From Enterobacteria phage RB18, in sequence record NC_054906.1: DNA of 64,000 nucleotides; one strand, written 5' to 3'. How positions within the stretch are numbered: the stretch's first letter is position 1; each line of letters starts with the position of its first letter. A model generated the notes under the pieces. That model saw only the letters and a list, made by a program, of their open reading frames with translations. It was not told where the DNA came from and ran no database searches. Position numbers and translations under genes: made by a program. This document shows, piece after piece, positions 3,080 to 55,259 of the stretch.

Positions 3080-4084
3080 TTAGCTCACCAACTCAATCCA
3101 AGCTGGACGAAGTACATCTTGTACCATTTTAACTAATTCCTTCTTAATCAAAGAAGGATTATCCGCTTGAGTTAGAGTAATACCTTCACGAGAAGTTTCT
3201 TCCAAAATATCTTGAACAGTTAGCCCCATCACCTTTCCAAAATCCTTTGGACCAATTTCACCAATTTTAGAAATAACGTTATTTACTCGGTTTAGTGTAA
3301 CGTAACAAGCTAAAATCCCCACCAATTTGTTATCAGCTTCTGACAGTTCAACTTTAGCTTTAATAGGCTTATCAGACTTTTTCTTTTCACTAAATTTGGA
3401 ATTCTTGCATTTAATCGCTACACGATTGCGATTAGGCAGCCAAGAAGGATAACAAGGTTTCAATACATATCCTTCAGCGGTAAATACTTCGCCTTTTGCT
3501 TCGGCATTCCAAACGCATTTATTTGCATCAACTAATCCAGCATGGTCTACTGTAAAATTATAATCTTGGACAACAGAATCTAAATCATTTGGCAATTTAA
3601 TAAGCTCTTCAAATTTACCGCGACCTAAAAGTGGAGCCATTTTAAATTTAAATGTATTGCAGAATGATTCCATCATATAATCGTCGACATAAGTCACATC
3701 GCCACTTTCTGTAGTGACAATAATGTCAAATACATAAAAATCTTTATCACCATAATCGACATTCTTCTGAATGCCAGGTCCAGCGAATTCGCCAAAGACT
3801 TGATAAGATACAACCGCTGAGGTTTCCATAATATCTTGTACTGCTTTAATGGAATCAGCGTAATTCTTTAAAATAATTTCATACCCAAAGAAATCTTCAG
3901 CAGGAAGAATCGGTCCAGTACGTTTAGCGCAAGTTACTTTATCACGCTCAATAATCAATGAGAAATTTGTGCCGTGAATCTTTTCACGAGCTACCCATTC
4001 GCCGCCAGTCAATCCTAAGCTATAAAGTTTTTCAATAAATTTAGAGTTGTAATGATTTTCAAGACTGCTATACTTTTTAAACAT
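3080..4084 (-). CDS. rnlB: RNA ligase 2
   Basis: 334 aa; N-terminus [16 protein letters not shown] and KIHGTN lysine motif as in T4 Rnl2. Confidence 0.9.
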
Positions 4085-4093
4085 AATTAATCC

Positions 4094-4372
4094 TCAAAAT
4101 GTAATTTCTAACCAATCACCATCACGCTGATCACTATTAACTTTAAAGCTGAATCCTTCTTTTCTCAGCCAATCACCAATTTCTTCAGTAATCAATTTAT
4201 CACGAGCAATACAATAATAATTAAAATGTGTTTTACCTTGTTCAGCTGCTTTATTAGCAAGTTCCGAAAAATCTTTAATAAAACACTCTAGCTTAAACTG
4301 TTTACTTTTAAGTGCTTTTTCGCGCAATTGATTAGCAAAAGATTCATTTTCATAAAGATCATACTGTTCCAT
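4094..4372 (-). CDS. Hypothetical protein (T4 24.2 position)
   Basis: 92 aa ORF, syntenic. Confidence 0.5.
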   Translation of the reverse strand: MEQYDLYENESFANQLREKALKSKQFKLECFIKDFSELANKAAEQGKTHFNYYCIARDKLITEEIGDWLRKEGFSFKVNSDQRDGDWLEITF

Positions 4373-4574
4373 TTTTCACCTTTTTATTGATATGTCTTTT
4401 TCTATAGACAACTTTTTCTCGAGTTTCAAATTTATTCTTAGCAGTCATAGCTCGAGCCCATAATACAGCCACTTCTTTTGCCTGTAAGTTTAATTCACGA
4501 GCAATTTCAATGAATGGCTTTCCAGACTCATGAAGAGTAAACACCACAACCTCAGTTCTCATAATCAATCTCAT
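4359..4574 (-). CDS. Hypothetical protein (T4 24.3 position)
   Basis: 71 aa ORF, syntenic. Confidence 0.45.
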   Translation of the reverse strand: MRLIMRTEVVVFTLHESGKPFIEIARELNLQAKEVAVLWARAMTAKNKFETREKVVYRKRHINKKVKNGTV

Positions 4575-4642
4575 GTTATCGAGTTGGTGCCATTATATAC
4601 ATCATTTTCTGATTGTGTTTTGTGTGCTTTCAAAATGAAGAA

Positions 4643-4658
4643 AGGGGCCGAAGCCCCT
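4643..4658 (-). terminator. Terminator hairpin after hoc
   Basis: ggggc-CGAA-gcccc with T-rich tract on minus strand. Confidence 0.6.
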
Positions 4659-4662
4659 ATGA

Positions 4663-5793
4663 TTATGGATAGGTATAGATGATACCAGTTTCTAAAGCAG
4701 TTTTATGAATGATGTATCCATTACGCGATTCTTGGACATCAACTTCTGGATAGTCTTTCATCATCTTCTGAAGAGTGTAACGATGCAAGTAGTACTTACT
4801 ATCTGGATCGTCAGTTTTCCAATCTTTACCTTCTTCGGTCATTTTTTGGATTTCATCCATAACCCACCAACCGCACCAGATGTAAGCTGAAGTACGATGT
4901 GGAAGAGGATGAACATAAGGTAATTCACCTTCTGGTTCTGGAGCAACTTTATCAGTTACCTGAACTTGACCTTCTGCTGTAATAGTTTTGCTATCATAAT
5001 CAGTAGCAGTAACAATTGCAGTAACTTCAATAGTTTGACTTCCAATAGATGAGGTATCAACGGTATATACATTAGTTGACCCTTCTACAGGAGAAGAATC
5101 TTTCTTCCATGAATACTCAATTTGCGCTTCTTCTGGAGCATCAGTGACATTAGCGGTAAATGTAGCCGAAGCATCTTGCTGAACGTTAATAGAAGGAGGA
5201 GTCAATGTAACCTGTGGATTCATTGTCTTCTTATTAACTGTTAATGATACTTCATTAGAAGTAACTTCCTTTGCATCATAATCTGCCGCGGTTACTTGAG
5301 CCACACACTTAATTCTTTTTACTCCGCTTTCGGCAGGAGTGTAATTGAACGTAGCGTTAGTTGCTTCGCCCACAGGAGAATCATCTACATACCATTGATA
5401 AGTAGCGTTTGCGCCCGCTGGCTGCGAAGCTAAAGCGGCAGTAAATTCAACAGCTGTTCCGATTACTCCAGCAGCAGGGCTATCAGGAGTTACAGCCAAT
5501 GTAGTCGTCTGTGTCTTATTTTGAACTGTGATAGTTGTAGTAGCTTCTGCTGTTTCAGCTTCAGCTTCTGGAACTGTATTTGTTGCAACTACTTTAATAG
5601 TCTTTTGTCCAGCAGGTCCTTTTAATACATAATCAAAAGTTTCTTCAGCTCCATCTTGTGGAACATTATCTACAGTCCAAGCATATGTAATAGGTCCATC
5701 TCCAGTTTGACCACTGGGTGTAGCAGTAAACTGCTTGGTTTCATCAATAACCCCTGTCGGTGTTTTAGGAGTTATATCAACTGTAAAAGCCAT
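4663..5793 (-). CDS. hoc: Highly immunogenic outer capsid protein Hoc
   Basis: 376 aa, Thr/Val-rich Ig-like repeats; length and position as T4 Hoc. Confidence 0.85.
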   Translation of the reverse strand: MAFTVDITPKTPTGVIDETKQFTATPSGQTGDGPITYAWTVDNVPQDGAEETFDYVLKGPAGQKTIKVVATNTVPEAEAETAEATTTITVQNKTQTTTLAVTPDSPAAGVIGTAVEFTAALASQPAGANATYQWYVDDSPVGEATNATFNYTPAESGVKRIKCVAQVTAADYDAKEVTSNEVSLTVNKKTMNPQVTLTPPSINVQQDASATFTANVTDAPEEAQIEYSWKKDSSPVEGSTNVYTVDTSSIGSQTIEVTAIVTATDYDSKTITAEGQVQVTDKVAPEPEGELPYVHPLPHRTSAYIWCGWWVMDEIQKMTEEGKDWKTDDPDSKYYLHRYTLQKMMKDYPEVDVQESRNGYIIHKTALETGIIYTYP

Positions 5794-5802
5794 AAGTTAT
5801 CC

Positions 5803-6483
5803 TTATTTTAATGTTACGAAAGAAGAATTGCGTGTTTCACGAATTAAAACTGATCCGTCACGGTTAATGTAATAAATTAAGCTAAATAAAGTTTGGTGTG
5901 CTGACGCATGCTCAAAACTTGTTGGGTGAGATTTCCAATCCGGAGTTTCAGCAATCCATTGATAAATCCACCAAGGAACAGTACAGAATCCTGGATTTTT
6001 TCCAATCAACTGAAGATTCGGGCTAAAGTTTTCCGGAAGAGTAAATACAGACGGCTTTTCAGATTCAATAATCTCAGCTACAGCCTGTTCAAATTTTTCT
6101 TCAACAAAAGGAGTATCTTCAATCAAAACATCGGTATTTTCAGGAATTTTATCCGTTTCTACTACTTCAATTTTAATGTCAGATTTAACCGGAGAATCAA
6201 TCAAAAGTGCTGCTTCTGGATTGACTTCTTCATCGTCATATTTTAATCCCTCTGCAGCATCAGCAGCATCAATTAAGTCTTTAATAGATAACCCATCAGT
6301 CTCTGGCATAGGTTCACTAGCGAGCTTCTGGAGGGCTTCTTCAATATCAACAACGATATTATCAAAAGATTTATTCTTTTTGACCTTTATACCAAACTGT
6401 TCAGCATATTCAGCTAATTTAGCTTTAGCTTCTTTGTTATCATCAAGAGCCTTCAGCTCTGCAATATAATCTTTATCTATCAT
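5803..6483 (-). CDS. inh: Inh-like protein (inhibitor of prohead protease), acidic
   Basis: 226 aa acidic ORF between hoc and uvsW; assigned by synteny. Confidence 0.5.
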   Translation of the reverse strand: MIDKDYIAELKALDDNKEAKAKLAEYAEQFGIKVKKNKSFDNIVVDIEEALQKLASEPMPETDGLSIKDLIDAADAAEGLKYDDEEVNPEAALLIDSPVKSDIKIEVVETDKIPENTDVLIEDTPFVEEKFEQAVAEIIESEKPSVFTLPENFSPNLQLIGKNPGFCTVPWWIYQWIAETPDWKSHPTSFEHASAHQTLFSLIYYINRDGSVLIRETRNSSFVTLK

Positions 6484-16669: not shown

Positions 16670-16673
16670 CAAT

Positions 16674-16699
16674 GGGGACCGAAAGGTCCCCATATTTTT
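16674..16699. terminator. Bidirectional terminator between gene 54 and the alt-region ORF
   Basis: ggggacc-GAAA-ggtcccc followed by T-run. Confidence 0.7.
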
Positions 16700-16988
16700 A
16701 TTTACGGAATGAAATAAAAGCAGCAACTGAAGCAACAGAGGTTTCTTCAATATAAACTTCAATTTTTACCGGAGCTTCTGACTCAAATTTACCTGTTACT
16801 ACACCCTGAAAAATACTTTCAGTCTGTTCTGGCTTTGAAAAATTTTCAGAAGGAAAAATTCCGAACTTTTTATCTGTTCCAAAAATTTTAATAAATTCAT
16901 CGTAAACTGCTTCATTAAAAGCATTATCAGCAGGAATAACGCCTTCAACTACAAGTTCTTGACCTAAAAAGCGCAAAGAAGATTTCAT
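16698..16988 (-). CDS. Hypothetical early protein (alt.-3 position)
   Basis: 96 aa ORF with SD; preceded by conserved early promoter. Confidence 0.5.
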   Translation of the reverse strand: MKSSLRFLGQELVVEGVIPADNAFNEAVYDEFIKIFGTDKKFGIFPSENFSKPEQTESIFQGVVTGKFESEAPVKIEVYIEETSVASVAAFISFRK

Positions 16989-17019: not shown

Positions 17020-17049
17020 ACTATAACACAATATGAGGGACTTGTAAAC
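17020..17049 (-). promoter_or_regulatory. T4-type early promoter with conserved leader
   Basis: Minus strand GTTTACA, 17 nt, TATAGT; roughly 55-nt block nearly identical to 32145-32188. Confidence 0.55.
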
Positions 17050-19106
17050 TACATTTTGAACTTTTTAGACATTCCGTTGATGTTAACCAAAGAAGCTAAG
17101 ATTTGAGAAACTTCGTTTTCCTCTTCTTTTGATTCTTCTACAAGGAATTGATTAAATCCAGCCATTGGACGAACTTCTCCGGTTTCCATTAGATAGTCAC
17201 CATCATATACTGATTCTTCTAATTGTTCAGAAGGAGGAACGATTGTACCTTCGATTAGATACTTGTTATAAGCAGTTTCTTTCATAAAGTAAGTACTTAC
17301 TTTATTAATCTTCAGTAAAATTCCACGCGGTAGAATAACTTCAGCTTCTGATGGAAATCCTGTTAAATGACCTGGAACGATAACTTTGATTCGCTCAGCT
17401 CCTTTAATTACCATACCCACGCTAGTTTCAGCATCTTCATTAGCATATGTAGAATGACTACCCATATGCATCAAATCTTCTGCATCAACAGAACCTTCTC
17501 CTTCACCAGAAAATACTGCGCCGGAATCATCTAGAGCCATATAGTTTTTACCATGCTCACCGAAGATATTTGGTTTAAGTGATGTCGATACGAAGTTCTT
17601 GAAATAGAACATTTTGTTTTCAATGTTATGACGCAAAGTTTTAAAGGTAACTTCTTGTCCACGATAAAGCGTAGTTCCTGGAGGAAGAACTGAACCTTTA
17701 GCGAATGCAGAATCCAACGTCTCGATGTGCTTAATAGCTCGTTCCATATATTCTTCACGGGTAGAATCTGGTTTACCCAAAAGGAACGAGTTCATTTCAA
17801 CATATGAATCTGCACAATAATCTTCAATTACATCAGATTCAGCTTGAGTTAATCCTTTTGGAGTTACTTCGGTGCTTGCGTATTCATATGCCTGAGCAGC
17901 AGATTCATTAATCAATTTATAAATGCCATTCATGACAAATTGAATAATAGCTGTCTTTTCATCTGGCGTAGCTTTAGAACCTTTAACCAAATCATTGATA
18001 ATTTTCTTAATAACATCAAAGCTATTAGAAATATTAATATCAGCAAGATCGCTTAAAATTTTATCAGTTTTATAATCAAAGAATTCTTTATTCTTTAAAT
18101 ATTCTTGAGAACCTTGATATGTTATATCGCTCTGCAACTTGATGGATGGATCACGTAAACGTGCATGGGCTAATGCAATATGATTTCGGAAGTTTTCTAG
18201 TTCATAATCGCTAGATTTAAAACGAGAAGCACTCCTCATACCACCGATAGCTCCTTTGTTGAAGTTTGAACCAATCTGAATAACGCCAGAGTTCATTGGT
18301 CCTTCTGCTTTATATACCGGAACTTTGGATTCAAACTCTTGATATTTCTTAGCAGCGAAGCTATCACCCTGAAGTGAAGCATCAACAGTAGAATATTGAG
18401 CTTGTGCTGCTAATCGACGACTAATTTTAGTTTTCTGAATAACAGCTTGGTCAGTGCGCTTATCATTTTCTAAAGCAATAGAAGCAGCAACTGCGACAGC
18501 TTTAGGAACAGCATTACCTGTTTTAACGTCTACATAAACATCACCAACCTTTGATTCAACTTTTGTGAATAACTCAGCTGAAATAGGAGGTACACCTGGA
18601 ATGTCTTCTAAATTGGCATTTTTACGGTAAACCATAATATATGCATATTTCTTATCATAGTCCCAGATTTCCTTTAAAAGAACATATCGGCCTGCTCCTT
18701 TAGTACGTACTAAACGGTCAGCAATAACTTGCATTTGACGAGCAGCGCCATTTGTTTTACTCTTTAGTACGCGGAATAAGCATGCATCAATTTTATACTG
18801 TTTCATTGTTTGAAGAGCAGTATCAAAAACAGCATTAATGACGCCAATTGGATTTCCACCCAAGTTTTTAAGCTTAACTAATGATAGTTTCTCATTAACA
18901 CCTATCATTACGATATGCATCATTTTGTCGCCTGGCTTAACGTTTTTATTCGTATCACCGCCAGAGGTGTATGTACAAAATCTAAATCCGGGGAGAACGC
19001 TTTCTTCACCGGCTTGAATAGCAAAAATTTGTGGTATTTTATGCTTAGGATTTAAGTTAACAACCGGCGCCGAAGCGCCGTCAAATAATTCTGTAATAAG
19101 TTCCAT
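17049..19106 (-). CDS. Alt-like mono-ADP-ribosyltransferase, second paralog (685 aa)
   Basis: N-terminal ~230 aa near-identical to neighbouring Alt; FVSTSL and EAEVILPRG ART motifs. Confidence 0.75.
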   Translation of the reverse strand: MELITELFDGASAPVVNLNPKHKIPQIFAIQAGEESVLPGFRFCTYTSGGDTNKNVKPGDKMMHIVMIGVNEKLSLVKLKNLGGNPIGVINAVFDTALQTMKQYKIDACLFRVLKSKTNGAARQMQVIADRLVRTKGAGRYVLLKEIWDYDKKYAYIMVYRKNANLEDIPGVPPISAELFTKVESKVGDVYVDVKTGNAVPKAVAVAASIALENDKRTDQAVIQKTKISRRLAAQAQYSTVDASLQGDSFAAKKYQEFESKVPVYKAEGPMNSGVIQIGSNFNKGAIGGMRSASRFKSSDYELENFRNHIALAHARLRDPSIKLQSDITYQGSQEYLKNKEFFDYKTDKILSDLADINISNSFDVIKKIINDLVKGSKATPDEKTAIIQFVMNGIYKLINESAAQAYEYASTEVTPKGLTQAESDVIEDYCADSYVEMNSFLLGKPDSTREEYMERAIKHIETLDSAFAKGSVLPPGTTLYRGQEVTFKTLRHNIENKMFYFKNFVSTSLKPNIFGEHGKNYMALDDSGAVFSGEGEGSVDAEDLMHMGSHSTYANEDAETSVGMVIKGAERIKVIVPGHLTGFPSEAEVILPRGILLKINKVSTYFMKETAYNKYLIEGTIVPPSEQLEESVYDGDYLMETGEVRPMAGFNQFLVEESKEEENEVSQILASLVNINGMSKKFKM

Positions 19107-19109
19107 GAT

Positions 19110-21206
19110 TTATCCTTGAACGAACTTGTAAGGCATGTTTGTAATATCTATGCAAGACGCAATAATTCCAAGAGATGATTCTACTTTCTGTTTAACATTT
19201 GATGAAACAAATGATGCAAAGTCAACTCTGTCTTCTATTTCAATATCACCTGTCATTGCAACCAATTCACCAGTTTCCATTAAATGGTCTCCGTCATAGA
19301 TTACCGATTCGGTGAGTTCTTCGGTGGTCATAACTTCAGCTTGAATGAGTTTTGTATTATTAGACGTGGTTCCGTCATTATTAGAAGCATCAGTTATTTT
19401 ATTAACTTTGACCATCAATCCGCGCGGTAGAATAACTTCAGCTTCTGTTGCTATTCCGAGATTTCCTGGATATACAACATTAACTTTATGAGCTCCATCA
19501 ATTGCCCATCCTATTTGAACTTTAACGTATTCAGGATTTTCTTTATACGCTCTTATTTCGCTTGGATTAATAGTTATTCCTTCTTCATTTTTATCAACTG
19601 TCAATTCATTACGAGCTTCTGGTTCTAAAAGACCAATACCAGCATGTGTAATTCCAAAACGTCCAAAAATGATAGGAGTTAAAGAAGTAGATACAAAATT
19701 TCTGAAATAGAACACTTTATTTTTAACTAGTGCTTCGTATATAGGAGCAGTCATACTTTGAGCACGATAAACTGTGATGCCTTCCGGTATGCGGTCACCA
19801 TTTTCAAAAGCTGAATCTAAGTTATTTATAGCAGATTCAATTTCTTTTTCACTCATTACATCATATCGTTCTGGATTGTAACGACCTAAAAGAAGATTAT
19901 TGATGTCAGTATATCCTGAACCGCAATATTCTCTAATGCCACGCTTTTGTGATGGAGTATATTTAGAACCATCGCGGGCAATAGTAATATCAATCATTGG
20001 ACCAGCACCAATTCCAGAAAAACTGTAAATCATTCGTTTGAGGAATTTAGTTTTTGCTGCGTTCCAGGAATTTTTAGTTATTTCTTCCCAGACTTCATCT
20101 GGTTGTCCTTTACGATTTTTATTATGATTAGCAAGCCATTTATCTTTATAATCTTCAAAGAATTGATTTACAGCTGCTGCGTATTTCTCTAAACATTTTA
20201 TTGAAGTAGTTGGTTCATTTTTAATTGCATTAAAAATTACTTCTTTAATTTTTTCTGAAACTTCACCGACTTGACTCATTGGAAAGAATTTATAATCATA
20301 GTGAAGTTCATCTGCCGTTCCTTCAGCAATAATTTTTGCTGCCTTTGTTTTAGAAGCTAATGAATTAATTCCAATTTTCATTTCTTCTGCTTCGGGAATT
20401 AAAGGTGCAGTAGCTGGTTTATTAAAATTAGCTGCTGTAGATTCATACTTCTGGAATAATTCACTTTCAAATCTAGAAGATTCCAATGACTGACTTTGTG
20501 CAATTGCTCTACGGGAAATTTTAACTTTAACGATTACAGCTTGGTCAGAACGTTTATCATTTTCTTGCGCAATAGATGCTGCAATTGCCTCATTTTTAGT
20601 TACTTGGGCTCCAGTATCTTTATTGATATAAACATCACCGACTTTCGATTCAACTTTAGTAAAGAGCTCGGTACTAATTTCCGGAACTCCTGGAATGTCT
20701 TCTAGTGATACATTTTTGCGATGTATAAGAATATATGCATACTTTTTATCGTAATCCCAGAGTTCCTTAAGAAGGACGTATCTACCACCTGAACGACTAC
20801 GGATAAGTCTATCAGCAATAACTTGAATTTGTCGAGCTTGGCCAGCAGTTTTAGACTTAAGAATACGAAGCATACAAGCATCAATTTTATATTGACGCAT
20901 TGTTTGCATTGCAACAGTAAAAACTGAATTGATATAATTAATCGGGCTTGGACCAAGACCTTTTAATTTGGCAATTGAACCTTTAGCAGTTAATGTAAAA
21001 GGAACAATATGCATCATTTTATCGCCCATCTTTAAATCGCGATTAGTATCACCTCCAGATGTATAGGTACATAAACGAAAGCCTGGTTGTTCAATTGCAT
21101 CATCAACATGAACTGAAAAAATTTGTGGTATTTTCTTCTTTGGATTTAAGTTTGTAATCGGAAGAGTAGTATCTTCGTCAAATAATTCTGTAATAAGTTC
21201 CATCAT
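19110..21206 (-). CDS. alt: Alt ADP-ribosyltransferase (capsid-packaged, 698 aa)
   Basis: FVSTSL (STS) and EAEVILPRG (ExE) motifs; late promoter upstream; T4 alt position next to ligase. Confidence 0.8.
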   Translation of the reverse strand: MMELITELFDEDTTLPITNLNPKKKIPQIFSVHVDDAIEQPGFRLCTYTSGGDTNRDLKMGDKMMHIVPFTLTAKGSIAKLKGLGPSPINYINSVFTVAMQTMRQYKIDACMLRILKSKTAGQARQIQVIADRLIRSRSGGRYVLLKELWDYDKKYAYILIHRKNVSLEDIPGVPEISTELFTKVESKVGDVYINKDTGAQVTKNEAIAASIAQENDKRSDQAVIVKVKISRRAIAQSQSLESSRFESELFQKYESTAANFNKPATAPLIPEAEEMKIGINSLASKTKAAKIIAEGTADELHYDYKFFPMSQVGEVSEKIKEVIFNAIKNEPTTSIKCLEKYAAAVNQFFEDYKDKWLANHNKNRKGQPDEVWEEITKNSWNAAKTKFLKRMIYSFSGIGAGPMIDITIARDGSKYTPSQKRGIREYCGSGYTDINNLLLGRYNPERYDVMSEKEIESAINNLDSAFENGDRIPEGITVYRAQSMTAPIYEALVKNKVFYFRNFVSTSLTPIIFGRFGITHAGIGLLEPEARNELTVDKNEEGITINPSEIRAYKENPEYVKVQIGWAIDGAHKVNVVYPGNLGIATEAEVILPRGLMVKVNKITDASNNDGTTSNNTKLIQAEVMTTEELTESVIYDGDHLMETGELVAMTGDIEIEDRVDFASFVSSNVKQKVESSLGIIASCIDITNMPYKFVQG

Positions 21207-21226
21207 AGCCTCTCTAGTGTTTATTC

Positions 21227-21234
21227 TATTTATA
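21227..21234 (-). promoter_or_regulatory. Late promoter (TATAAATA, minus strand) for alt
   Basis: tatttata on plus strand about 21 nt upstream of the alt ATG. Confidence 0.6.
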
Positions 21235-21238
21235 AAAT

Positions 21239-21258
21239 TAAAGGCCCGAAGGCCTTTA
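21239..21258 (-). terminator. Terminator hairpin downstream of the ligase operon
   Basis: aaaggcc-CGAA-ggccttt. Confidence 0.6.
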
Positions 21259-21444
21259 ATAATCTAGTGGTAAGAGAGTACGGTATATTTCAAACTTTGG
21301 ACCTTTTTCATAGGCATCAAATGTTTCTGTGAATTTATTATAAGCATATGCATCTACAAATTCGAGAATGACTTGTGATACAGAAGTAGAAACATCTCCA
21401 CCTTCTTTTTGAGCAATGACAATTGTTTCTAAGTAAGCTTTCAT
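21256..21444 (-). CDS. Hypothetical protein (62 aa)
   Basis: ORF with ATGA overlap to ligase stop. Confidence 0.4.
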   Translation of the reverse strand: MKAYLETIVIAQKEGGDVSTSVSQVILEFVDAYAYNKFTETFDAYEKGPKFEIYRTLLPLDY

Positions 21445-50651: not shown

Positions 50652-53600
50652 ATGGCTACTTTAAAACAAATACAATTTAAAAGAAGCAAAATCGCAGGTG
50701 CACGTCCTGCTGCTTCAGTATTAGCCGAAGGTGAATTGGCTATAAACTTAAAAGATAGAACAATTTTTACTAAAGATGATTCAGGAAATATCATTGACTT
50801 AAGCATTTCTGCTGGTGGTAATATCAGTGGAAATATCACTCAAACTGGTGATTATACACAGACTGGAAAATTTAATTTAATTGGTCCGCAAATTGTAGCA
50901 AGCGGTGGATATATTGAGTTTAATTATCGTACTACTGGAAGTGGGGCTTGGTCCGGTCAACATACTGCGAAAGCTCCAATTTTTGTAGATTTAAGCTCAG
51001 CTACTTCCACATCTGAATATAATCCTATAATTAAACAGCGCTTTAAAGATGGAACTTTTTCATTAGGTACTTTAGTTTCTGAAGGTTCGTTGAAGATTCA
51101 TTATATCAATGAATCTGGCGATTCGAAATATTGGACGTTTCGACGTGACGGCGGATTTACTGTTGACGGTGGAGGTTTAGGAGTATCAGGAGGTAGTATA
51201 ACTACATCTGGAAATATTGCAGCTCTCGGAAATATTACTTCGCCTCAGATTAATACTAAAAATATTATTTTAGATACAAAAGCATTTGGACAATACGATT
51301 CGCAATCATTAGTTCAATATGTTTATCCTGGAACAGGTGAAGAAAATGGTATAAACTATCTTCGTAAAGTTCGAGCTAAATCAGGCGGAACCATTTACCA
51401 TGAAATCGCTTCAGCTCAAACCGGTAAAAATGATGAAATTTCTTGGTGGACCGGAAATACACTTACTACTAAATTAATGGGTCTTCGTAATGATGGCGCA
51501 ATGGTATTACGTCGTTCACTTGCTATTGGCACAATTACCACTGACGAAAATACTAACAACTATGGTTCTCCTACTCCAATGGGAGAAAGATATATTGCTT
51601 TGGGCGATGCTGCCACTGGTTTAAAATACATTAAGCAGGGTGTTTATGATTTAGTAGGTAATTGGAATTCTGTTGCTTCTATTACTCCTGATAGTTTCCG
51701 TAGTACTCGTAAAGCGTTATTTGGACGTTCAGAAGACCAAGGCGGAACCTGGACAATGCCTGGAACGAACGCTGCCTTTTTATCAGTTCAAACACAGGCT
51801 GATGAAAACACTGCTGGAGACGGCCAGACGCATATTGGCTATAACTCAGGCGGAAAAATGAACCACTATTTCCGTGGTAAAGGCAAAACTAATATTAATA
51901 CTCAGGAAGGTATGGAAGTTAATCCGGGTATTTTGAAATTGGTAACTGGCTCTAATAATGTAATGTTTTATGCTGATGGCGGTATTACATCTGTTAAGCA
52001 GCTTTCAATATATAATGGCATATATTTAGCAGCTAATAATTCTACTGCTGGGCTAACATTCGCTCCAACTACTACAATTGATGGTACTAAGCAAATTTTG
52101 TGGGAAGGCGGTACTCGCGCTGGGCAGAATAAAAGCTATGTAACTGTTAAAGCATGGGGTAATTCATTTAACGCATCTGGCGATCGTAATCGTGAAACGG
52201 TTTTTGAAGTAGCTGATGGACAAGGATATTATTTTTATTCACAGCGTGTGGCTCCAAGTGGCTCTGAAACTACTGGGCCTGTTGTAACCCAGTTCAATGG
52301 ACAAGTTAATGCTAGAGGAAGTATTATTACTGACGGAAGTTTTAAAGTTAATGGATTAAGCACTTTAGTCGGTAATGTTACTATGTCTAATGGTTTGTTT
52401 GTCCAAGGTGGTTCTTCTATTACTGGACAGGTAAAAATTGGTGGAACGGCTGATGCATTAAGAATTTGGAATGCTGAATACGGTGCTATTTTCCGTCGCT
52501 CAGAAAGTAATCTTTATATTATCCCGACTCCTAAAGATGCTGGAGAATCGGGCGGTATAAGTAATCTTAGACCATTGATAATAGAACTGAACACTGGCAC
52601 AGTTAAAATGTCGCATGATGTTCATTTAGGAGATTCTGGATCTGGTACAGGACTTTTACAAGTAAGTAATAGTCTTAAAACTATTAAAATGATATGTCCA
52701 GTAACTATTAATTCACCTAATGCAGTGCTTACTCTAGATTCTCCTTCATCTTCTGCTAATTATTTACTGGGTTCTAGAGATGGAACTAGATCGTGGTATG
52801 TTGGTCTTGGTGGCGCTGGAAATGATTTATCGCTTTATAGTCAATATAATGGACACGGTCTTGTTATAAGCAATAATTTAGTATCAATCACTAAACCTCT
52901 TAAAGTCGGAAATGCACAATTAGGAACTGACGGTAATATTACCAATGGTTCAGGAAACTTTGCCAACTTAAATACCACGTTAAATCGTAAAGTTAATTCT
53001 GGATTTATTACTTATGGAGCAACCTCTGGATGGTATAAGTTTGCAACAGTAACAATGCCACAATCCACTTCAACAGTCTTCTTTAAAATAGTTGGAGGTT
53101 CTGGATTTAATAGCGGATTATTCACCCAATGTAATATTGCTGAAATTGTTTTACGTACTGGTAATGAAAGACCTTCTGACTTAAATGCTGTATTATACAC
53201 AAGAACAACTGGAATGTATAGCGCAGCATTTAGAAATATTGCAGTTAACAATGTCTCTGGAAATACATATGACATTTATGTTTATGCTGGAACATATTGT
53301 AATCAACTAGTTTGTGAATGGTCATGTACCGAAAATGCTACTGTTAGCGTTATTGGTATTAACTCATCTACCCAATCACCTGTGGATGCTCTTCCAGATA
53401 CAGCAGTTGATGGGCAAGTTGCTAATGTTCTTAATAACTTGGTTGATCGCGGTAAAGTTAAGCGTTATGAAGCCGATTCTGAAATAGCTATTAATAGCCC
53501 AACCGGTATTCGTATCAGAAGCAATGGCGATAAAACTGGTTCTGTTGCTACAATGCTACGAAATGATGGCGGCAGTTTTTATATTCTGTTTACAGATAAA

Positions 53601-54437
53601 AATGCCACCGATGGCGCAGCAACTGTTAATGGTGATTGGAATAGTAAACGTCCTTTCGCAATTAACTTAACAACCGGCGAAGTGATGATGAATAATGGCA
53701 TAGCTGTTCGCAGCGCTGCTTTATTCTATAATAGCATAAACGTCAAAGATAATGGTTCTATTAACTTTGATAAATCAGGTGCTAACCCGAGAAATATGAG
53801 AATATTTCATGCTGGCGATGCTTCTCGCGGTAACCGCATTGAAATTGCAGATGAAACTAACTATATTGCTTACTTTGAAAAGGCTCCAGGTGGAGCTAAC
53901 CGCTTTGTAGTAAATAATGCTACTGTAGCTGGTGTTAACCAAATGAATTCATTTGGTATTAATATCAATAACGCACTTGGTGGAAATAGTATAGCATTTG
54001 GTGATAGCGATACTGGTATTAAGCAAAATGGCGATGGATTATTAGACATATATGCGAACAGCGTACAAGTGTTCCGTTTCCAAAACGGTGATTTGTACTC
54101 ATACAAAAATATAAATGCTCCAAACGTTTATATTCGTTCTGATATTCGTTTAAAATCCAACTTTAAGCCTATCGAAAATGCACTTGATAAAGTTGAAAAA
54201 CTTAACGGTGTCATTTACGATAAAGCTGAATACATCGGTGGAGAGGCAATTGAAACTGAAGCGGGTATTGTGGCTCAAACGTTACAAGACGTTTTACCAG
54301 AAGCTGTCCGCGAAACAGAAGATAGCAAGGGTAATAAAATACTCACTGTTTCTTCTCAAGCCCAGATTGCTCTTCTGGTTGAAGCTGTGAAAACACTTTC
54401 TTCTCGTGTAAAAGAACTTGAATCTAAACTTATGTAA
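50652..54437 (+). CDS. 37: Long tail fibre distal subunit gp37, T2-type with C-terminal auto-processing chaperone domain
   Basis: 1261 aa; C-terminal SDIRLK...VKELESKL resembles intramolecular chaperone/peptidase S74 module. Confidence 0.85.
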   Translation: MATLKQIQFKRSKIAGARPAASVLAEGELAINLKDRTIFTKDDSGNIIDLSISAGGNISGNITQTGDYTQTGKFNLIGPQIVASGGYIEFNYRTTGSGAWSGQHTAKAPIFVDLSSATSTSEYNPIIKQRFKDGTFSLGTLVSEGSLKIHYINESGDSKYWTFRRDGGFTVDGGGLGVSGGSITTSGNIAALGNITSPQINTKNIILDTKAFGQYDSQSLVQYVYPGTGEENGINYLRKVRAKSGGTIYHEIASAQTGKNDEISWWTGNTLTTKLMGLRNDGAMVLRRSLAIGTITTDENTNNYGSPTPMGERYIALGDAATGLKYIKQGVYDLVGNWNSVASITPDSFRSTRKALFGRSEDQGGTWTMPGTNAAFLSVQTQADENTAGDGQTHIGYNSGGKMNHYFRGKGKTNINTQEGMEVNPGILKLVTGSNNVMFYADGGITSVKQLSIYNGIYLAANNSTAGLTFAPTTTIDGTKQILWEGGTRAGQNKSYVTVKAWGNSFNASGDRNRETVFEVADGQGYYFYSQRVAPSGSETTGPVVTQFNGQVNARGSIITDGSFKVNGLSTLVGNVTMSNGLFVQGGSSITGQVKIGGTADALRIWNAEYGAIFRRSESNLYIIPTPKDAGESGGISNLRPLIIELNTGTVKMSHDVHLGDSGSGTGLLQVSNSLKTIKMICPVTINSPNAVLTLDSPSSSANYLLGSRDGTRSWYVGLGGAGNDLSLYSQYNGHGLVISNNLVSITKPLKVGNAQLGTDGNITNGSGNFANLNTTLNRKVNSGFITYGATSGWYKFATVTMPQSTSTVFFKIVGGSGFNSGLFTQCNIAEIVLRTGNERPSDLNAVLYTRTTGMYSAAFRNIAVNNVSGNTYDIYVYAGTYCNQLVCEWSCTENATVSVIGINSSTQSPVDALPDTAVDGQVANVLNNLVDRGKVKRYEADSEIAINSPTGIRIRSNGDKTGSVATMLRNDGGSFYILFTDKNATDGAATVNGDWNSKRPFAINLTTGEVMMNNGIAVRSAALFYNSINVKDNGSINFDKSGANPRNMRIFHAGDASRGNRIEIADETNYIAYFEKAPGGANRFVVNNATVAGVNQMNSFGININNALGGNSIAFGDSDTGIKQNGDGLLDIYANSVQVFRFQNGDLYSYKNINAPNVYIRSDIRLKSNFKPIENALDKVEKLNGVIYDKAEYIGGEAIETEAGIVAQTLQDVLPEAVRETEDSKGNKILTVSSQAQIALLVEAVKTLSSRVKELESKLM

Positions 54438-54467: not shown

Positions 54468-55259
54468 ATGGCAATTGTAGGTGTTCCTGGCTGGATTGGC
54501 GAATCTGCCGTGAATGAAACTGGACAACGTTGGATGGATGCTGCAATGAAAGCAGTTCGTGTTTCAGTTCCTGGTTGGATGAGCTCAATGGCTGGACAAT
54601 CTAAAGAAGTATATTACAGCATTGGTGCTAGCAATTCTTATAATAAAGATACACTAATAAATTGGATAAAAGCCCAAGGAAGTACTCCTGTTGTTATTAC
54701 TATTACAGGAAATATTGTTTCTCAATCTACTGGTGTTCCATGCTTAGATTTTCCTAGCTCATTAACTAATGCATATGTTACCTTAAATATTAATAGTGGG
54801 GTTCATGTATTAGGTCGGGGAGGAAATGGCGGAAGTAACTCTGCTGGTGGAGCAGGAGGAACTGCAATAAATAACGGAATTGGAACTCGTTTAAGAATAA
54901 ACAATAATGGTATTATTGGTGGCGGTGGCGGTGGCGGCGCAGGTGCTAGATACAATCCTTTCCCTCAAATGGATATGAAATTTGGTGGCGGCGGAGGTCG
55001 TCCATTTGGCGCAGCTGGCGCAGCAGGAGGTGGCGCAGCTGCAGCATCTGCTGGTACAATTTCTGCTCCCGGTAAAGGCACTGTTTCTGGGGTTCACCAT
55101 GGAGGAGATGGTGGAGATTTAGGAGCTGCTGGCAAATCTTCATATATTCAAGGTGGTACTGGAGGAACTGTTCACTCGGGTGGTGCTGCGGGTAAAGCTG
55201 TTACTGGTAATGCTCCAACTTGGACTAAAGTTGGCACAATATATGGTTCAAGAGTATAA
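54468..55259 (+). CDS. 38: Tail fibre tip adhesin gp38 (T2-type, glycine-rich)
   Basis: 263 aa with poly-Gly blocks (GGGGGGGAGA, GGGGGRPFGAAGAAGGG) separated by short variable segments. Confidence 0.8.
   Translation: MAIVGVPGWIGESAVNETGQRWMDAAMKAVRVSVPGWMSSMAGQSKEVYYSIGASNSYNKDTLINWIKAQGSTPVVITITGNIVSQSTGVPCLDFPSSLTNAYVTLNINSGVHVLGRGGNGGSNSAGGAGGTAINNGIGTRLRINNNGIIGGGGGGGAGARYNPFPQMDMKFGGGGGRPFGAAGAAGGGAAAASAGTISAPGKGTVSGVHHGGDGGDLGAAGKSSYIQGGTGGTVHSGGAAGKAVTGNAPTWTKVGTIYGSRV
54918..54940 (+). repeat. GGY-codon simple repeat encoding poly-glycine in gp38
   Basis: ggtggcggtggcggtggcggcgc. Confidence 0.7.

Follow-up and report, generated by a model that had tools for sequence, protein, structure and literature searches.

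Alt, an NAD+:arginine mono-ADP-ribosyltransferase packaged in the phage head, is the textbook example of a phage enzyme that is injected along with the DNA to reprogram the host, and nearly everything known about it comes from phage T4. About 40 copies of gpAlt are found in the prohead core, and the N-terminus of the protein is trimmed by gp21 (reviewed in PMC9958956). The E577A mutation in the glutamate motif of T4 Alt abolishes activity (PMC11404850). Duplications of alt have been described for T4, RB49 and 44RR (Nolan et al. 2006; PMC1524935). Here, we describe the alt locus in a 64,000 nt stretch of DNA from Enterobacteria phage RB18 (NC_054906.1; hereafter "the window"), where two full-length alt genes, altA and altB, are arranged in tandem. 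The pair itself is no discovery, since two genes are annotated in hundreds of genomes, that of T2 included. The explanation that best fits our observations jointly, and that we consider probable, is that the window comes from a T2-like Tequatrovirus and has kept the ancestral two-gene alt locus, encoding two late, injected enzymes with differing targets.

All coordinates refer to the window, and features are on the minus strand unless otherwise stated. An earlier interpretation made from the DNA letters without database searches (the sequence-only reading) described two adjoining open reading frames (ORFs), one of 698 aa at 19110–21206 and one of 685 aa at 17049–19106, as paralogs separated by 3 nt. 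Both are present in the ORF list, and the gap between them reads TAA, ATC, ATG. The likely start of altA is the second of two ATGs, at 21203 rather than 21206, because this choice gives the same MELITE N-terminus as T4 Alt, lies 5 nt from the ribosome-binding site GAGAGG (21209–21214), and corresponds to the 2094 nt coding sequence annotated in REP1 and T2. We therefore describe altA as a gene of 697 aa (19110–21203). The downstream gene, altB (17049–19106; 685 aa), encodes a full-length Alt paralog, and its ribosome-binding site, AAGGA (19113–19117), is found within the last codons of altA. BLASTP aligns the two proteins over their full length (41% identity, E = 4e-157), and each fits phrog_802 from end to end (residues 1–696 of AltA, E = 2e-273; residues 1–685 of AltB, E = 2e-255), which bears out the claim of paralogy.

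The location of the pair, between alt.1/DNA ligase on one side and alt.-3/gp54 on the other, is that of the Alt family in T-even phages, and altA is the positional ortholog of alt in T4 (NC_000866). The two proteins are 71% identical overall, with a very uneven distribution of differences. Residues 1–246 and the last ~60 residues of AltA are about 95–100% identical to T4 Alt, and the N-terminal domain (aa 1–236; 20496–21203) is 100% identical. The centre of the protein (residues ~247–640), which includes the catalytic domain, varies between 15% and 80% identity per 30-column window; third-codon-position identity is 33–52% here, which is near saturation. Identity between AltB and T4 Alt is 41%, with the whole architecture common to both.

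AltA and AltB are built to the same plan: a MELITE leader, an alpha/beta N-terminal domain of ~230 residues, a helical middle region, an ADP-ribosyltransferase (ART) domain of the C3/VIP2 type, a DGDxLMETGE motif, and a disordered tail. An AlphaFold model of AltB (mean pLDDT 73.8) has the alpha/beta N-domain, the helical middle, the ART domain, and a tail that is predicted to be disordered from residue 629. The N-domain of AltB (aa 1–236; 18399–19106), which also starts with MELITE, is modelled by AF2 with a pLDDT of 83.4 and a pTM of 0.81. The sequence-only reading had described the first ~230 residues of the two proteins as near-identical. This overstates the likeness: the first ~236 residues are 67–68% identical, with third-codon-position identity of 37–76%. 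The claim that the central part is strongly diverged is correct, with 23% identity between the copies in the middle region and 36% in the ART domain, and with synonymous sites near saturation. Both proteins had also been said to end in a conserved tail. The motif concerned is indeed conserved, as DGDHLMETGE in AltA (19266–19295) and DGDYLMETGE in AltB (17175–17204), but neither protein ends there: the motif is followed by 51 further residues in AltA and 41 in AltB. The columns of this motif are invariant among 13 homologs although it lies at the start of the variable, predicted-disordered tail.

The ART domain is recognized in both proteins by PF03496 at scores well above the cut-off of 23.4 bits: 129.2 bits for AltA (E = 1.6e-37; Pfam envelope 19323–20072) and 70.3 bits for AltB (E = 1.8e-19; 17247–17861). 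PF26846 (Tevenvirinae_ADPRT) is a precomputed assignment on homologs that are 98% identical; NCBIfam has no match to AltA or AltB. The signatures FVSTSL and EAEVILPRG, pointed out earlier, are found in both copies, as is YR(A/G)Q. The catalytic residues of AltA are R480 (19764–19766), S505-T-S507 (19683–19691) and E587-A-E589 (19437–19445), and those of AltB are R482 (17661–17663), S507-T-S509 (17580–17588) and E587-A-E589 (17340–17348); all of these codons were verified. Hence, the 685 aa copy has an intact R, STS and ExE, and the loss of its Glu/STS residues, which the sequence-only reading had named as a finding that would speak against its interpretation, is not the case. In AltB numbering, R482, S507, S509, E587 and E589 are invariant in an alignment of the 13 homologs, which reaches down to 42% identity.

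The same fold and the same R/S-T-S/E-x-E triad are found in C3-like and binary-toxin ARTs of PF03496 (C3bot/C3cer, Vis, Certhrax, VIP2, iota Ia and CDTa), with sequence identity to the phage enzymes of 13–20%. AltA by itself aligns directly by sequence to CdtA and iota Ia, and the CdtA alignment places the Arg and the ExE. A phmmer search of PDB sequences with AltB alone gave no match, and a family profile was needed: the profile of the 13-homolog alignment matches C3cer, BECa and Certhrax, with the Arg on the catalytic Arg and the EAE on the Q/ExE. With the AltB model, in which the pLDDT of the ART region is mostly 56–91, Foldseek gives matches at probability 1.00 (E = 2e-7 to 1e-4; TM ~0.6 on the target) to Vis, C3bot, CDTa, VIP2 and Certhrax. 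The phage enzymes differ from the toxins in having a ~400-residue N-terminal extension, consisting of the N-domain and the helical region, and probably in being delivered by virion ejection rather than secretion. Among the phage enzymes themselves, T4 Alt has EME where AltA and AltB both have EAE. By our count, the glutamate motif of T4 Alt is E574-M-E576 in NP_049811; we assume that the E577 of PMC11404850 is the second Glu, with the numbering offset by one. Together, these observations support the classification of AltA and AltB as full-length members of the Alt family with R-S-E ART domains that are predicted to be catalytic.

Comparison of the window phage with REP1, T2 and AR1 indicates that altB is under strong purifying selection: dN/dS is 0.04–0.06 at dS of 0.11–0.18, and there are no internal stop codons. 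The corresponding dN/dS for altA is 0.075–0.10. Clusters of altB homologs that are 97–98% identical and shortened to 624, 528 or 415 aa also exist, one of them on 14 contigs, including a 166-kb contig. These may reflect a different choice of start codon, alleles with a frameshift, or altB genes that have decayed further.

How widespread is the two-gene arrangement? Over 4.9 kb, the DNA of the locus is 98% identical to that of Escherichia phage REP1, and 366 phage records have matches that cover ≥80% of it. Among the matches listed, most annotate two genes for an "Alt-like RNA polymerase ADP-ribosyltransferase". The distal 1,352 nt of altB, which are absent from T4, are found in 400 records at 90–99% identity, and the neighbouring ligase gene is found at ≥95% identity in 497 records. 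With the altB tract in ~80% as many records as the ligase, an intact pair is what most of Tequatrovirus has, T4 being the exception. T2 (PV648364.1) has two genes with the same order, lengths and 3 nt spacing as those in the window, and both genes are intact in AR1, where altB is paired with an altA allele of the T4 type. Tandem alt pairs of this order and spacing are also annotated in REP1, wV7, RB51 and ime09, the last of which uses the name "alt.-2". Beyond this genus, the pair recurs, with a gap of the same length, in the Dhakavirus members JS98 and JS10 (as alta and altb in the JS98 annotation), and two alt copies lie in tandem in an Aeromonas phage. The sequence-only reading had anticipated that reference T-even genomes might carry the same two intact genes, already characterized as functionally redundant. 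T2, AR1 and JS98/JS10 do carry both genes intact; we found no paper that describes what the two do, whether as redundant genes or in any other way.

T4 has no intact counterpart of altB; where the window has a full-length gene, T4 has only fragments. T4 alt.-1 (NP_049810; 61 aa) matches AltB residues 1–56 at 95% identity, and T4 alt.-2 (NP_049809; 67 aa) matches residues 62–116 at 98%. The DNA of this remnant (5066–5451 of the T4 stretch that we compared) is 96–97% identical to that of the window. Two lesions separate the T4 sequence from an intact gene. The first is a frameshift, caused by a 1 nt deletion in an A-run at altB codon 54 (18942–18950 in the window). The second is the absence of 1,699 bp between imperfect 9 nt direct repeats: CTAAAGAGT at altB codons 114–116 (18759–18767) and CTAAAAAGT at codons 680–682 (17060–17068), both located by DNA comparison with T4. 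This answers the question, left open by the sequence-only reading, of whether the second copy corresponds to a T4 alt.-x gene: altB is the intact counterpart of alt.-1 together with alt.-2. By the evidence of this comparison, alt.-1 and alt.-2 are the remnant of a full-length paralog, disrupted by a frameshift and a microhomology deletion. In the T4 GenBank note, alt.-1 and alt.-2 go back to an old, partial duplication that took in the first part of alt. This appears to have the history the wrong way round, with duplication of the full-length gene coming first and loss coming later.

The two halves of the Alt proteins appear to have had different histories. Within the window phage, the paralogs are 68% identical in the N-domain and 31% in the effector half; the corresponding values are 66% and 30% within JS10, and 56% and 27% within AS4. 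Between genera, N-domains are only 37–46% identical for all pairs. By contrast, the effector halves resemble those of the same copy in the other genus: the AltA of the window and the upstream copy of JS10 are 46% identical in the N-domain and 78% in the effector half, and AltB and the downstream copy of JS10 are 46% and 54% identical, respectively. Judged from these identities, the N-domain tracks the genome, and the effector half tracks its own A or B lineage. The pattern fits concerted evolution of the N-domains, or repeated duplication followed by exchange of effector halves. N-domains that are alike within a genome would point to concerted evolution or to a fit with the head components of the phage itself. 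Recent gene conversion is ruled out as the source of the N-terminal likeness by the third-codon-position identity of 37–76%; older concerted evolution is supported.

Two natural fusions of the genes were found. In phage ECML-134 (NC_025449.1), a single gene of 686 aa replaces the pair (3701–5761 of the stretch compared) and consists of altA residues 1 to ~155 followed by altB. A metagenomic contig from Logan (SRR24155011_2765) has a single fusion of 684 aa at 4001–6055, with a junction near residue 180. An assembly artefact was considered for the contig, and rejected: the longest exact match between altA and altB near the junction is 16 nt, and ECML-134, which was sequenced independently, has a similar fusion. 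We treat the fusions as real because ECML-134 is an independent isolate with a different junction, at ~aa 155–165 rather than ~aa 180. The sequences indicate that the two fusions are independent unequal crossovers within the conserved N-domain. Exchange also seems to have affected altA itself. The effector half of altA (aa ~247–640; 19300–20480) exists as at least two deep alleles with sharp boundaries in flanks that are otherwise ~100% identical. The type shared by the window, T2 and RB51 has 78% protein identity to JS10 and 58% to T4; the T4 type is found in AR1. From this, the effector part of altA seems to be exchanged among T-even phages like a cassette.

A late promoter had been noted upstream of altA only, and the two genes had been proposed to be co-transcribed. 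An exact match to the late promoter box, TATAAATA, is confirmed on the minus strand at 21227–21234. The box is at the same offset from altA in seven of seven related loci examined, T4 included, and in the record of T4 alt (X15811.1) the equivalent place is marked with a late promoter and a ribosome-binding site. A second exact match to TATAAATA is located within altA at 19823–19830, 717 nt upstream of the altB ATG. Hence, the statement that the promoter precedes only the upstream copy holds for the conserved box and does not hold for the octamer as such. The internal box is probably fortuitous. It occurs only with the altA allele shared by the window, REP1 and T2, and the octamer is near chance frequency in the window (12 seen, 8.9 expected). 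We rejected the internal box as a conserved late promoter for altB, given this frequency and the intact altB of AR1, where the octamer is absent. There is no terminator-like site on the coding strand between the two genes, nor before 16693. The first minus-strand terminator-like site after the alt genes is a bidirectional hairpin between gp54 and alt.-3 (16672–16693). With a single conserved late promoter across seven loci, a gap of 3 nt, no terminator on the coding strand, and an internal box that is missing from AR1, co-transcription of altA and altB is the simplest reading, and one that we infer from these features of the locus.

Both proteins begin with MELITE, as does T4 Alt, and I-T-E fits the (L/I)xE rule for cleavage by the prohead protease; the record for T4 Alt gives the post-translational loss of six residues ("6 amino acids cleaved off"). 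We propose the following sequence of events. A single late message starting from TATAAATA at 21227–21234 would carry both genes, with altB translated from its own AAGGA. The N-domain would take each protein into the prohead core, where the prohead protease would remove the leader. Both enzymes would then be ejected with the DNA, and would carry out NAD+-dependent mono-ADP-ribosylation of host proteins as soon as infection begins. The targets of AltA and AltB in the host would most likely differ, perhaps with some overlap, since the two proteins are only 23–36% identical in their middle regions and catalytic domains.

Several points weigh against this proposal. In the literature, we found no functional, virion-proteomic or enzymological study of altB that would document that the protein is made, packaged, processed or injected. 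The divergence in targets is deduced from divergence in sequence alone. The internal TATAAATA at 19823–19830 could add late transcription specific to altB in this allele. Lastly, phages that lack the altB effector (T4) or the altA effector (ECML-134) are viable, so neither enzyme is essential, which leaves room for redundancy.

We can also suggest, more tentatively, that AltB is a second virion-delivered effector with a target set of its own, and that the shared N-domain is a genome-matched module for incorporation into the head, with interchangeable cargo; we hold this to be plausible, and somewhat less probable than the proposal of two injected enzymes as such. If so, the N-domains would be kept similar between paralogs by recombination, and AltB might possibly act on such targets as nucleic acids, translation factors, and components of toxin or defence systems. 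A module with interchangeable cargo is hinted at by the natural A/B fusions and by similar predicted N-terminal folds in other myophage proteins. Specifically, a search of BFVD with a model of AltB aa 1–245 showed that the fold recurs, at 12–16% identity, at the N-termini of uncharacterized proteins from Erwinia, Dickeya, Agrobacterium (Atu_ph07) and Vibrio myophages, and the annotations of some of these include a Zeta-toxin, ParB/Sulfiredoxin or cytidine-deaminase domain. To judge by these predicted structures, the N-domain fold of Alt may be a shared virion-delivery module.

An alternative explanation for the retention of two genes is that the injected AltA and AltB have much the same host targets (e.g., the alpha subunit of RNA polymerase), such that the second copy provides only an extra dose or a backup. 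The architecture and catalytic motifs that the proteins share, including an identical EAEVILPRG, are consistent with this, as is the loss in nature of either effector half: that of altB in T4, and that of altA in ECML-134. T4 Alt has, moreover, been reported to modify many proteins (PMC5512222, citing Depping 2005). Nonetheless, the copies have diverged widely, with synonymous sites near saturation, and the A and B effector lineages are distinct across genera, at 78% and 54% identity to their orthologs and ~30% to each other. The purifying selection on altB and the long-term maintenance of two diverged lineages are unlike a pure dosage role. We therefore regard redundancy as unlikely.

A second alternative is that AltB is not injected. 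It could act late, in the cell that produces it, or could be mainly a structural part of the prohead core, with catalysis secondary; PMC11404850 discusses Alt as both a core protein and an enzyme. We consider this improbable. AltB has kept the MELITE leader and an N-domain that is 67% identical to that of AltA, and its catalytic residues are invariant. Furthermore, the sole Alt of ECML-134 is the altB effector behind the N-terminal ~155 residues of altA, which implies that the N-terminal segments of AltA and AltB are interchangeable. It is scarcely conceivable that altB is a decaying duplicate or an annotation artefact without function, as might be supposed from the broken remnant in T4 and the GenBank note of an old partial duplication, given its low dN/dS (0.04–0.06, at dS of 0.11–0.18), a 685-codon frame that is intact in every phage examined, its presence in ~80% of Tequatrovirus-level records, and the orthologous pair in Dhakavirus.

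The observation made by the sequence-only reading was thus accurate, and its interpretation largely right; the details that needed correction are the near-identity of the N-termini, the terminal position of the tail motif, the altA start codon, and the second TATAAATA within altA. What our analysis adds is the purifying selection on altB, the likely concerted evolution of the N-domains, the A/B fusions, and the deep alleles of the altA effector. T4 emerges as atypical: most of its close relatives, T2 included, have a second, conserved and, from its sequence, apparently active Alt paralog. The biochemistry of AltB is beyond the reach of work centred on T4. If AltB is indeed a distinct effector, T-even research would have passed it by because the gene is deleted in T4, its model phage. 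The question of which host molecules AltB modifies is a testable one, and nature provides a set of phages for comparison: T2-like phages with A and B, T4 with A only, and ECML-134 with the N-terminal ~155 residues of A fused to the B effector.

It is conceivable that the DGDxLMETGE motif is a second, C-terminal site for the prohead protease, with cleavage at DGDxLME/TGE, since L-M-E also fits the (L/I)xE rule. The only support for such a site comes from the L-x-E pattern and from the motif being invariant, and we did not adopt it. A second cleavage would make sense of older reports that mature Alt is much smaller.

The pair is flanked upstream by the genes for DNA ligase and a 62 aa "Phage_blade" protein (alt.1). 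Just after the alt.1 stop codon, and adjoining the late promoter, is a predicted hairpin (21237–21260) of 10 bp with a UUCG loop, followed by a U-rich tract; its folding energy is −13.5 kcal/mol, with a z-score of −3.5 relative to shuffled sequences. The order of elements 5ʹ of altA is thus hairpin, TATAAATA, GAGAGG and ATGATG. The next gene downstream of altB is the alt.-3 homolog (16698–16988), a DUF5498 gene that matches PF17602 at E = 3e-62. It converges with plus-strand homologs of gp54 and gp48, which were named by length and position relative to the T4 and REP1 annotations. A site that resembles a T4 early promoter (GTTTACA, 17 nt, TG-TATAGT; 17020–17049) lies between the altB stop codon and alt.-3. 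From this match to the consensus, alt.-3 may have early expression of its own, apart from the late alt message. Elsewhere in the window, plus-strand ORFs of 1261 aa (50652–54437) and 263 aa (54468–55259) follow ORFs of 1289, 371 and 221 aa. From the ORF lengths and the T4 map, we presume that the 1261 aa and 263 aa ORFs encode a distal tail fibre gp37 and a gp38 adhesin of the T2/T6 type, rather than the T4 type.

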